Sequence record: PZ386974.1
DNA: 64,000 bases
Reading direction: 5' to 3' (one strand)
Source of the DNA: a phage
Of the stretch, positions 16,913 to 53,943 are shown piece by piece. Every line of letters begins with the position of its first letter. The first letter of the stretch is position 1. The position numbers were made by a program, and so were the translations under genes. The notes beneath the pieces are model-generated. The model searched no databases. It had not been told where the DNA came from and saw nothing but the letters and a program-made list of their open reading frames with translations.

Positions 16913-16943
16913 GATATTTTCCTCATTTTAAGACGATAGGAAG

Positions 16944-16973
16944 ATAATAACATGTCTTCCTATCGTTGTACAT
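16944..16973 (-). promoter_or_regulatory. early-type promoter (ATGTAC-N18-TATTAT) with 8-bp inverted repeat ATAGGAAG/CTTCCTAT flanking -10
   Basis: Read directly on the minus strand upstream of ORF 16673..16912. Confidence 0.45.
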
Positions 16974-32256: not shown

Positions 32257-32283
32257 AACGTTCTCCTCTAGTAAGTAAGGTCT

Positions 32284-32312
32284 ACTATAACACAACCTGA
32301 GGAAAAGTAAAC
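32284..32312 (-). promoter_or_regulatory. early-type promoter GTTTAC-N17-TATAGT
   Basis: Hexamers on minus strand between the rI terminator and the next gene. Confidence 0.45.
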
Positions 32313-35034: not shown

Positions 35035-35493
35035 CTAGATTTTAATCACTGCTTTAGAAGCTTTTCCTGGTAGTCGTTTACTGTTAATAATAGCCATTCT
35101 ACATTGAAGAGTCTTCATTTTGAATGCCGGATTTTCGCGACAAACTGTAAGTCCTAACCAAAGATTTCCATCAGTTATTTCTAAACGGCCTGGGCGGTAC
35201 TCGACACCTTCGACAAAATCTTCATCAACATCCGGACGTGCCGGCATTGATAAAAATTCTGCAACTTCTTTAACGTGATTTTTTACTTTATGAAATAATT
35301 CAAAAACGTAATTCTCATCTATTTCTCTCTGGATGGCACGATCTAAGAGATGTTGAGAATACTTGATATGAAAGCCTGGTAGTCCAAGAGACTTTGCAGC
35401 ATCTTTTATACCGGCATTTATTTTGCGGAACTCCGTTTCAAAGATTCGACGGAGTTTATTACGGCGGATAAAAACTTCCGAATTGATAGTCAT
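35035..35493 (-). CDS. regB: endoribonuclease RegB
   Basis: MTINSEVFIRRNKLRR...YSQHLLDRAIQREIDE matches T4 RegB; start set at MTIN (35493). Confidence 0.85.
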   Translation of the reverse strand: MTINSEVFIRRNKLRRIFETEFRKINAGIKDAAKSLGLPGFHIKYSQHLLDRAIQREIDENYVFELFHKVKNHVKEVAEFLSMPARPDVDEDFVEGVEYRPGRLEITDGNLWLGLTVCRENPAFKMKTLQCRMAIINSKRLPGKASKAVIKI

Positions 35494-35503
35494 TTTGATT
35501 TCT

Positions 35504-35550
35504 CCTCTAGTTGACAAGTCTATAGTAACACAACTAGAGGAGAAGTAAAC
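35504..35550 (-). promoter_or_regulatory. early-type promoter (GTTTAC-N17-TACTAT) embedded in inverted repeat CCTCTAGT/ACTAGAGG that contains the regB Shine-Dalgarno
   Basis: Hexamers and 8-bp arms read directly; the 3' arm on the minus strand includes the GAGGAG SD. Confidence 0.5.
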
Positions 35551-35849
35551 TACTCTTTGAAAGGAATTAACTTTTTAACTGCTTTAGATACTTCGTCACG
35601 AACCTGATGGAAGTTCTTGAGCTGTTCAAGGCGTTGTTCGTAATACGCAATCTCATCTTCTTCAAGACAATCGTCAGCGTCTTCTTTCAGATATGCCTTG
35701 TACTCATTAAAGAGGGCCCATAGGCGGTTCTCAAAGTCATCAAGGCTTTGAATTTTCTTGTGCTTCGGAACAAGGCCAAAAGGATTGCTTTCAGTTATGC
35801 GTCTAGATGCTTCATAATGAGTTCCAAAGCCTGATAGGATTTGAGCCAT
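35550..35849 (-). CDS. hypothetical protein (99 aa)
   Basis: ORF. Confidence 0.5.
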
Positions 35850-38716: not shown

Positions 38717-39130
38717 TTAGTAAATTGATTTACCATAGTATTTGTACCAAGTCGGACGTTGAGCAATTTTTTCATCTAAGCGTGCTTGACTTATCGCAAT
38801 GGACGCTTCGGACGGGACGTAATTATTACGAAATTCGGCAGGGATGTCGGAAATATCCTGGACAGTCGTGTCCTTGATTTTGAAACCACGTTTCAAGCAT
38901 TCAGCGATTAGCTCGATTTGTCGTAAACGTAAAAATTCGAGTTTGTCGTAAAAGAATGTTACGTGACCTGTGCCTAAGATAAATGTTGGAGAGATTTTAA
39001 AATCCTTTACACGTTTACCGTTTTGAACATGTTTACGGACTGCACCAAATACGCGTGGTAATTCACGATACTCAGCCATAAGATGTTGGTCGGCCAGTTC
39101 AGAAACAAGCGTTAAATTGATACGGGTCAT
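38717..39130 (-). CDS. denV: endonuclease V (pyrimidine-dimer DNA glycosylase) DenV
   Basis: [34 protein letters not shown] matches T4 DenV; start set at MTRINL with GGAGG SD. Confidence 0.9.
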
Positions 39131-39135
39131 AATTT

Positions 39136-39187
39136 CCTCCAAGTAGTTGATGAATGTATAGTATCAAAGTCCTTGGAGGAAGTAAAC
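39136..39187 (-). promoter_or_regulatory. early-type promoter (GTTTAC-N18-TACTAT) within inverted repeat CCTCCAAG/CTTGGAGG that contains the denV Shine-Dalgarno
   Basis: 8-bp perfect arms; -10 lies in the loop; the 3' arm is the SD. Confidence 0.5.
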
Positions 39188-39955: not shown

Positions 39956-39989
39956 AATACCTCCCACGTTTATAGGAGGTATTTATTAC

Positions 39990-46304: not shown

Positions 46305-46574
46305 TTTGTTTTCCTCTTGATTTGATAGGACTACTATAACATAAACTTACTTAGATGTAAATTATTTCAACGTCACCTTTAGCTGCTTTATAACCTTCAG
46401 CCCAAGATACAACAGAGTTTTTATCTGAGGATTCAAATTCAGGCATTGGACTTTCACCAATATTCACACAGTATGTTTCTTCATTTTCATCGAACCAAAT
46501 AATTAAAGTAGTCATTTTGTTTACTCCTCTGTAGTTGATAAGTCTATAGTATCACCATCCTTGGTGCTTGTACA

Positions 46575-47078
46575 TCATTTATTTTTAATTTTGCAAATTT
46601 TTTCTGCTTCAGCAATTGCAGCGTCAATGATGCTTTGTGCAATTTTATTACTAGTTGACCTGGCAATCACACTAAGAACAATTTCTTTTTCTTCACCACC
46701 CCAACCCCAAGTCCTTTGTTCGTGGGTACCTTTAACTACAGCTGAAACTTCAACAGAACGTCCACCATCAGAAGTTTTAACATCTACAACCCAATCACCA
46801 TCTTTCTCTTCTACCCTTGATTTATCCCAAGAAATACTAATATATGATTCGCTATCAATAGAAGTCGCCGGGTTTTTCTCTACCGTAAGACCTTCACTTT
46901 CCAGCCATTCAATAGTATTTGCGCATAAATCTGAAGAACACCTAATCGGAAACCGGCAAGATTTTTCACCTTTAGCTGCAGCGTTATACATCTTTTCTAA
47001 AATACGCTTTTGCACGTTTTTAAAAATAGTTTCAGCAGATTCTTCAGATTTTTTATTCAGTTCAGTGTAAAGACTCAT
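46575..47078 (-). CDS. hypothetical protein (167 aa)
   Basis: ORF. Confidence 0.5.
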   Translation of the reverse strand: MSLYTELNKKSEESAETIFKNVQKRILEKMYNAAAKGEKSCRFPIRCSSDLCANTIEWLESEGLTVEKNPATSIDSESYISISWDKSRVEEKDGDWVVDVKTSDGGRSVEVSAVVKGTHEQRTWGWGGEEKEIVLSVIARSTSNKIAQSIIDAAIAEAEKICKIKNK

Positions 47079-47168
47079 AATATTCTCCCCATGTTTTGAT
47101 AGGTCTATAGTAACACATCTAGGGAAGAAGTAAACATCTTTATGAAATATTTTTATGCCCTAGATACC

Positions 47169-48415: not shown

Positions 48416-48492
48416 TGGTCGAGACAGAAGGATTCTAACCTTCAACCTACGGATTAGAAGTCCGTTGCTCGATACAATTGAGCTATGCCTCG
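48416..48492 (-). tRNA. tRNA-Arg (anticodon UCU), CCA encoded
   Basis: Manually folded cloverleaf: 7-bp acceptor stem (one G-U), D-stem GCTC/GAGC, anticodon stem ACGGA/TCCGT with loop CTTCTAA, T-stem GAAGG/CCTTC, discriminator A + CCA. Confidence 0.8.
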
Positions 48493-48498
48493 AATATA

Positions 48499-48572
48499 TG
48501 ACCCAGACCAGATTCGAACTGGTAACCTTTCCCTTATGAGGGGACTGCTGCTAACCATTGAGCTACAGGGCC
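48499..48572 (-). tRNA. tRNA with CAU anticodon (Met or lysidine-type Ile)
   Basis: T-arm ACCAG-TTCGAAT-CTGGT, anticodon loop CTCATAA with U33/A37, acceptor stem with one mismatch; CCA not encoded. Confidence 0.6.
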
Positions 48573-53432: not shown

Positions 53433-53882
53433 TTACCCCTTGTATCCGAGTTTTCTAAGACCATCTTCGGTTAGAACTCGAAATTTTATATTTCTCTTTT
53501 CAGCAACAGCTGAGGCAGCTTTCCATTTGTCACAGTTCACAGACCACGTGTAGATTTCATTCATATAACGTTTCTTTGCTGCAGTCGTAAGATTTGCAGG
53601 CTTAATAGGTGGTTGAGTTTCTTTCTTTGGTTTTATTTCTACAAAGAACTCTTGACCTGATGCATCTTTCATCCATATGTCCATATAGTATCGACGTTTT
53701 TTACCTTCTGCGTTACAGAAATATGGAATTACTGCTGTTTCACTACCCCATGCAATAATTTCTGGATTTTTATCCAACCATTCGAAAAAGAATTTTTCCC
53801 AGTTTGAACGATACGTTATTTTGGTATGGTCTCCACGGTATTTTTTTAAATTTTTTGGGACCCATTTACCAGAGTAGGCCAT
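53433..53882 (-). CDS. 4: head completion protein gp4 (by synteny)
   Basis: 149 aa; divergently arranged with gene 53. Confidence 0.75.
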
Positions 53883-53893
53883 GTTGTCCTCCT

Positions 53894-53901
53894 TATAAAT
53901 A
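53894..53901 (+). promoter_or_regulatory. late promoter TATAAATA for gene 53
   Basis: Exact TATAAATA 43 bp upstream of the gene 53 ATG. Confidence 0.7.
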
Positions 53902-53908
53902 GTATTAT

Positions 53909-53916
53909 TATTTATA
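53909..53916 (-). promoter_or_regulatory. late promoter TATAAATA (minus strand) for gene 4
   Basis: Exact TATAAATA on minus strand ~27 bp upstream of the gene 4 ATG. Confidence 0.65.
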
Positions 53917-53943
53917 CCAATTTCATATTGGAAGGAGACTATC

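Follow-up and report, generated by a model that had tools for sequence, protein, structure and literature searches.

[quoted passage not shown] In the case of gene e, the hairpin cuts lysozyme synthesis about 100-fold (PMC3014915). Across these systems (e, soc, 49, I-TevI/II/III and segB, together with mobE of phage Aeh1), the Shine-Dalgarno (SD) sequence or the AUG forms the 3′ arm. The gp55-dependent late promoter, TATAAATA, lies inside the hairpin, its transcripts lack the 5′ arm, and translation is confined to late times.

Another structure, the promoter-early stem-loop or PeSL (Arbiol et al. 2010; Comeau et al. 2014), lies between or overlaps the −35 and −10 elements of early promoters in T4-like phages (PMC2839356, PMC4122927). 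One PeSL stem-loop from RB49 reduced expression of a downstream lacZ gene like a strong terminator, and a term search of the 2010 paper finds neither “translation” nor “ribosome” (PMC2839356). The early endoribonuclease RegB adds a trans-acting layer of control: it cuts GGAG in SD sequences, is blocked by secondary structure and cuts its own SD efficiently (PMC3014915, PMC1702504), an autoregulation that limits RegB synthesis to early times (PMC3014915).

Here we analyze a 64,000-nucleotide stretch of phage DNA (record PZ386974.1; hereafter the window), whose segment from 35 to 39.6 kb is 97–98% identical to T4-like phages of the RB69 group (Mosigvirus). In this segment, regB and denV, both early genes in T4 (PMC3014915, PMC1702504), are each preceded by a hairpin that encloses an early promoter and pairs the gene’s own SD. 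Neither gene appears among the hairpin-regulated genes in the T4 reviews PMC3014915 and PMC2988022. Judged from sequence, what appears to be new is the pairing of the arrangement with an early promoter and early genes, since the hairpin switch is known for late T4 genes only. The T4 structures themselves may have been seen earlier, because the abstract of Valerie et al. 1986 reportedly noted potential stem-loops before ipII, ipIII, denV and tk in T4.

Hairpins around the regB and denV early promoters

The genes for RegB (35035..35493, ATG at 35493-35491) and endonuclease V (denV, 38717..39130, ATG at 39130-39128) were identified on the minus strand from the open reading frame (ORF) list and the annotation of homologous records. 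Upstream of regB lies a vs.3-like ORF with a TAG stop at 35552-35550, and upstream of denV an ORF resembling an internal head protein with a TAG stop at 39191-39189. The T4 vs.3-like gene occupies 35555-35843 in the window; RB69 carries an unrelated ORF (RB69ORF117c) instead, and the boundary of this replacement falls exactly at the regB promoter cassette. The two intergenic regions measure only 56–58 nt and share one order: stop codon, −35, an anti-SD 5′ arm that forms the promoter spacer, extended −10, start site, SD-bearing 3′ arm and ATG. The upstream ORF ends 1–3 nt 5′ of each −35.

The mRNA strand of the regB intergenic region reads TAG-TTTAC-TTCTCCTCTAGTTG-TGT-TACTAT-AGACTTGT-CAACTAGAGGAGAA-ATCAAA-ATG. 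Sequence inspection and a pattern scan place the −35 at 35544..35550 (GTTTAC at 35550-35545; TTTACT at 35549-35544), immediately after the TAG of the vs.3-like ORF. The TTTACT abuts a 5′ arm, TTCTCCTCTAGTTG (35531..35544), which fills the −35/−10 spacer and begins 5 nt after the upstream stop codon. An extended −10 element, TGT followed by TACTAT (35522..35530, with TACTAT at 35527-35522), occupies the hairpin loop, and the 3′ arm, CAACTAGAGGAGAA (35500..35513), contains the SD GAGGAG at 35507-35502. The stem between TTCTCCTCTAGTTG (35544-35531) and CAACTAGAGGAGAA (35513-35500) is a perfect 14-bp inverted repeat with a 17-nt loop on the minus strand, and the minimum free energy (MFE) structure pairs the same arms. 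The predicted start site is the seventh nucleotide after the −10 (~35515), and transcripts from the proximal promoter would thus be missing the 5′ arm.

The corresponding denV region, again on the mRNA strand, reads TAG-T-GTTTAC-T-TCCTCCAAG-...TGA-TACTAT...-CTTGGAGGA-A-ATT-ATG. Its −35 (39181..39187; GTTTAC at 39187-39182, TTTACT at 39186-39181) starts 1 nt past the upstream TAG stop, and the TTTACT abuts a 5′ arm in the promoter spacer, TTCCTCCAAG (39172..39181), which lies 7 nt beyond that stop codon. The extended −10, here TGA plus TACTAT (39158..39166, with TACTAT at 39163-39158), is likewise found in the loop, and the 3′ arm, CTTGGAGGAA (39134..39143), carries the SD GGAGG at 39140-39136. 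TTCCTCCAAG (39181-39172) pairs with CTTGGAGGAA (39143-39134) on the minus strand in a perfect 10-bp stem, also present in the MFE structure, with a 28-nt loop. The predicted start again is the seventh nucleotide after the −10, at ~39151. A preliminary description of this DNA had placed inverted repeats of 8 bp around the −10 elements at these two sites on the coding strand; the sites, strand and bracketing of the −10 stand, but the repeats are 14 and 10 bp long. Its identification of the 3′ arms with the two SD sequences holds at both genes, as does its proposal that the short transcripts lack the 5′ arm, which lies wholly upstream of the predicted start site in each case.

Both promoters match the early consensus TTTACW-N16/17-TAYWAT of T4/PST-type promoters (PMC4122927). 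A strict sigma-70 consensus scan does not call either of them because each scores 8 of 12 matches. About 20 comparable promoter-gene junctions lie on the same strand of the window. The hidden Markov model of Nolan et al. 2006 independently predicts the RB69 homologs of these two promoters as Pe:61376 (regB, score 32.5) and Pe:64934 (denV, score 21.1), and its model 3′ ends, 22 nt (regB) and 21 nt (denV) before the ATG, coincide with the starts predicted here, which fall 1–7 nt before the 3′ arm. We also considered and rejected a late-promoter reading of the embedded promoters, since no TATAAATA occurs in the regB or denV loops or near either site and the elements present, GTTTAC and TGnTACTAT, are of the early type. 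A further conserved sequence, TAnnnT-AG[AT]C[CT]T[AG]TCAA, follows the −10 of early promoters at 35511-35527 and at seven other minus-strand sites of the window (50035, 47096, 46535, 46322, 43468, 31820 and 27636), and takes the promoter consensus into the initially transcribed region.

Inverted repeats of this kind are in excess in the window. The window contains 10 perfect repeats of 10 bp or more (loops of 3–40 nt), compared with 3.7 ± 1.9 across 30 dinucleotide-shuffled sequences; the longest is that of regB, and none of the 30 shuffles gave a repeat of at least 14 bp. Folded as a 91-nt long RNA, the regB region reaches −23.2 kcal/mol (z −3.07) and the denV region −20.3 kcal/mol (z −2.96), and the RNAs that start inside either loop fold no better than shuffles. 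The preliminary description had proposed that the SD is masked in RNA initiated upstream, and the predictions agree: the probability that the SD is unpaired is 0.00 in both long RNAs and 0.5–0.7 in the short forms (0.68 for regB, 0.51 for denV). Opening the region from −18 to +10 is predicted to cost 19.0 kcal/mol (regB) and 13.4 kcal/mol (denV) in the long RNA and 3.0 kcal/mol in the short RNA; the long-RNA costs for T4 are 21.2 kcal/mol (regB) and 14.2 kcal/mol (denV). These stabilities and opening costs are comparable to those of the T4 late hairpins. T4 gene e, a validated control, gives 16.8–17.7 kcal/mol for the long RNA and 2.9 kcal/mol for the short RNA when its leader lengths are estimated. 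The window holds the classic gene e (lysozyme) hairpin as well, at 39956-39983 on the minus strand, where AATACCTCCTAT-AAAC-GTGGGAGGTATT masks the SD and AUG (−16.3 kcal/mol, z −3.4) and a late-promoter-like TATAAAC takes in the loop and the top of the 5′ arm; the hairpin served as an internal positive control. In the RB69 annotation, e starts five codons downstream of the T4-like ATG.

SD masking was also ranked independently of promoter calling, over 92 annotated RB69 gene starts. By this measure regB is first and denV second of the 92, each with its pairing partner at −49 to −44, inside the promoter spacer. At a T4 locus of 26 genes, full masking of the SD is confined to denV, regB and the positive control e. 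A hairpin over the −10 only, with the SD left free, is found at most other early promoters in the window. Two candidates for further members were set aside as too weak because their folds are no better than shuffles. One lies upstream of mobD.2a (32261..32306, minus strand), where TTTTCCTC and GAGGAGAA form 8 bp, one of them G·U, around a 30-nt loop with the −10; its SD has an unpaired probability of 0.00 within the window sequence and of 0.10 in RB69, its fold has a z of −0.09, and RB69 has a predicted terminator directly upstream of the mobD.2a promoter. The other precedes an ORF that starts at 47078 (47083..47129, minus strand), where TTCTTCCC and GGGGAGAA form 8 bp, again with one G·U; here the unpaired probability is 0.22 in the long RNA versus 0.47 in the short, the z is −1.11, and a covariance model built on T4 denV leaders matches with 33.6 bits. 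At gathering score, Rfam 15 contains no family that matches the regB or denV element, and its only matches in the window are two tRNAs. Two adjacent tRNA genes occupy 48419-48572 on the minus strand and correspond to a tRNA-Arg/tRNA-Met pair in the RB69 annotation.

Maintenance of the hairpins across T4-like phages

T4 itself has the same layout with other arm sequences at both genes: TTTTCCTCTTGACTG pairs with CAGTTAAGAGGAGAA over 15 bp, two of them G·U, upstream of regB, and TCTCCTGTAG pairs with CTACAGGAGA upstream of denV. We extended the comparison to 16 regB and 80 denV loci on viral contigs. These contain 5 stem types for regB and about 15 for denV, and every type is complementary to the SD region that it accompanies. 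The stems adopt two geometries. In the first, the 5′ arm lies in the promoter spacer, as in the window; in the second, the arm overlaps the discriminator together with the end of the −10; in locus L039, for example, ATGTCCTCCTA and TAGGAGGACAT enclose a 6-nt loop. Lineages of the second geometry have the 5′ arm after the −10 and more than 30 nt from the upstream stop, and their SD is still masked. In both geometries the SD is masked and the predicted start lies downstream of the 5′ arm. Arm length (5–15 bp), loop length (5–34 nt), arm sequence and position relative to the −10 all vary across lineages, and only the complementarity to the gene’s own SD is kept.

Aligning the leaders with MAFFT and folding them with RNAalifold failed to give a consensus structure, as the register of the arms differs from lineage to lineage. 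We replaced this approach with alignment-free swap and permutation tests and with a covariance-model alignment. When promoter regions are swapped between loci, the own region pairs better with the translation initiation region (TIR) than the swapped ones do (Wilcoxon p = 0.0017 for regB and 3e-6 for denV). A permutation at the level of lineages, to which each stem type contributed a single representative, yields p = 5e-5; in 10 cases the own promoter is the best of 20. In the covariance-model alignment of 18 leaders, 96.6% of cells pair, compared with 82.2 ± 1.6% in shuffles (0 of 500 reach this value) and 44–57% for slid partners, and 6 of 10 pairs are changed on both sides; this alignment leans towards structure because it is fitted to structure. 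Stem mismatches comprise 9 G·U and 4 A·C, a distribution that only weakly favors the sense-strand RNA as the paired form.

Masking is weak in three denV loci (L030, L032 and L027), and is absent from the most distant regB locus (L017) and from jumbo-phage and cyanophage-like denV loci. Four of the jumbo-phage denV loci (L040, L042, L046 and L048) have a G+C-rich terminator hairpin about 60–30 nt before the ATG, with a −35 TTGAC in the stem followed by a T-run and TATAAT. This arrangement is a composite terminator-promoter, and its SD is unmasked.

By sequence, the regB and denV leaders belong to the PeSL family of promoter/stem-loop cassettes, exchangeable between sites. They share with PeSLs the order of intergenic stop, −35, stem-loop, −10, SD and ATG, the promoter consensus TTTACW-N17-TAYWAT, a position at module junctions, and homologous copies 5′ of different genes. 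The window ceases to be homologous to RB69 at 35554/35555, where the regB element has its 5′ edge, and homology with T4 upstream of denV ends at ~39166, inside the promoter. The covariance model of T4 denV leaders scores the window’s regB leader at 57 bits and its denV leader at 16 bits, and matches several other window promoters. The window’s regB leader shares 82% identity with the T4 denV leader and 69% with that of T4 regB, and its sole stem difference from the former is a compensatory C/G for G/C pair. Part of the covariation may therefore reflect the swapping of whole palindromic cassettes rather than stepwise compensation, and the independence of some covariation events is weakened because cassettes recombine between sites. 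Masking nonetheless stays on regB and denV in both T4 and RB69 despite this turnover, which argues for gene-specific selection.

The leaders also differ from PeSLs as these have been described. PeSL loops have been read as terminators or attenuators and as recombination sites, whereas the 3′ arm at regB and denV is the SD, and the masking goes with two specific genes in different phages. Neither stem is followed by a U-tract; the tails are AAAUCAAAAUG (regB) and AUUAUGACC (denV). We therefore rejected an identity as intrinsic (rho-independent) terminators for both stems, since they lack the U-tract and no scan calls one.

A putative switch set by the transcript 5′ end

These features suggest that the regB and denV elements act as cis switches, with translation of the gene determined by where its transcript begins, a reading that we consider likely. 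RNA from an upstream promoter would contain both arms and fold into the 14-bp (regB) or 10-bp (denV) hairpin, burying the SD and excluding the 30S subunit. RNA from the gene’s own early promoter would start in the loop, without the 5′ arm, and present a free SD on a leader of ~21–22 nt. Only transcripts from the own promoter would then probably be translated. In T4, the RNA of a denV[AU] mutant is cut at the GGAG of the SD in vivo at 3 min (PMC1702504), so the SD is accessible on early transcripts. Within the window, our scan found no terminator-like site on the minus strand between the upstream promoters and either element, and TransTerm on RB69 calls no terminator between 71365 and 59939 and does not call the regB or denV hairpins. 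Read-through into both genes would thus be expected.

T4-type early promoters shut off within minutes. With a promoter of this early class embedded in the hairpin, the synthesis of RegB and DenV would be confined to the immediate-early period. Later read-through RNA, which for denV would include RNA from gene e and the internal-protein region upstream, would contribute nothing. The preliminary description had likened the arrangement to the switch known in T4; the hairpin layout bears this out, including a promoter within the hairpin whose transcripts are predicted to lack the 5′ arm, but the T4 precedents (e, soc, 49 and I-TevI) use late promoters on late genes. The regB and denV promoters are instead of the sigma-70 early type and serve early genes, their 5′ arm is the −35/−10 spacer (or the −10/discriminator in other lineages), and the expected outcome is early-only rather than late-only translation.

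A likely side effect would be that the paired GGAG in read-through RNA is shielded from RegB cleavage. RegB autoregulation acts on the same GGAG-containing regB SD and also keeps RegB synthesis early. It differs in that a trans-acting nuclease attacks accessible RNA, whereas the hairpin is a cis structure that would render read-through RNA both untranslatable and RegB-resistant.

Other functions could be assigned to the same elements, and each explains less than the switch dependent on the 5′ end. They could be PeSL-type attenuators or terminators and recombination sites that limit read-through and aid module shuffling, with the SD pairing incidental. The published stem-loops in early promoters and the terminator-like effect of the RB49 loop speak for such a role (PMC2839356, PMC4122927), as do the homology breakpoints at both elements, the homology of cassettes across genes, and the −10 hairpins clear of the SD at most other early promoters of the window. 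We regard it as unlikely, since the stems have no U-tract and neither our scan nor TransTerm calls terminators there, and since it offers no account of a 3′ arm that is specifically, in T4 as well as in RB69, the SD of these two genes, of promoter regions that best match their own SD region, or of a 5′ arm that shifts to the −10/discriminator with SD pairing kept. It is distinctly improbable that protection from RegB is the main function, in which case the paired GGAG would spare polycistronic RNA and preserve downstream cistrons, with the translational block secondary. GGAG does lie in both 3′ arms, and RegB cuts this motif in SD sequences, including its own, unless structure protects it (PMC3014915, PMC1702504); yet the GGAG of T4 denV is masked even though its 3′ context already makes it RegB-resistant (PMC1702504). 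Moreover, with the entire SD buried in a stem of 10–14 bp, 30S binding must be blocked as well, and shielding and translational block are thus inseparable in silico.

The short distances from the upstream stop codons to the 5′ arm, 5 nt for regB and 7 nt for denV, together with the pairing of the SD with the base of the stem, bring translational coupling into consideration, whereby the SD of the long transcript is freed only when a ribosome ending the upstream ORF melts the 5′ arm. A terminating ribosome, given the size of its footprint, would reach at most the first few base pairs of a 10–14-bp stem, and the 5′ arm of the second geometry lies more than 30 nt from the upstream stop with the SD masked regardless; we consider coupling very improbable. 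The proximity does bear on the proposed switch itself, since a ribosome terminating 5 nt before the regB 5′ arm could open its first few base pairs. Least probable of all is a role at the level of DNA, in which the palindrome would serve a dimeric regulator as operator or form a cruciform over the promoter. The perfect palindromic arms that bracket the −10 would suit it, and the mismatch spectrum is compatible with symmetry in the DNA. Against it, arm sequence and length, loop and position all vary while only complementarity to the own SD is kept, and G·U mismatches outnumber A·C by 9 to 4. Roles in recombination and in RegB shielding are compatible with the proposed switch and could operate alongside it.

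If the switch works as we infer, it would provide a cis-encoded reason for the synthesis of early proteins to stop despite continued transcription from upstream. RegB would be among the proteins affected, a nuclease whose production, according to the T4 literature, needs tight regulation. The mechanism belongs to a well-known class, and the advance would be incremental: the gene e switch would be extended to the opposite temporal direction, and part of the PeSL cassettes, so far discussed as terminators or recombination sites only, would gain a possible post-transcriptional role. The fate of an RNA, both its translation and its sensitivity to RegB, would be set by its 5′ end, which bears on phage RNA-seq and on proteome timing. 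A broader proposal, for which we judge the odds to be about even, is that T4-like phages possess a class of “immediate-early-only” switch built on PeSL-type cassettes, that selection retains it at regB and denV in different genera through swaps of cassettes and two geometries reached by convergence, and that RegB cleavage depends on where the transcript starts.

Other promoter hairpins in the window

A near-identical palindromic cassette, GATAGGACTA-TGTTATAG-TAGTCCTATC, lies 5′ of several small ORFs on the minus strand (50064-50038, 43497-43471, 42201-42176 and 31849-31823), with related copies near 46338 and 27652. Its hairpin covers the −10 and the predicted start but not the SD, and would therefore be confined to DNA and read-through RNA. 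The cassette is probably the PeSL of the RB69 group. A perfect 12-bp palindrome at 16933-16966, ACGATAGGAAGA ... TCTTCCTATCGT, has a 10-nt loop that on the minus strand forms, with the first two bases of the 3′ arm, the −10-like TGTTATTATC; judging by this layout it may be another promoter-in-hairpin, here without a canonical TTTAC −35. Upstream of gene 4, at 53880-53939 on the minus strand, an exact late promoter, TATAAATA, is situated between GTCTCCTT and AAGGAGGAC. The site may form an SD-masking hairpin around this late promoter, of the same type as that of gene e and with one bulge, and the SD of its RB69 homolog has a predicted unpaired probability of 0.13.
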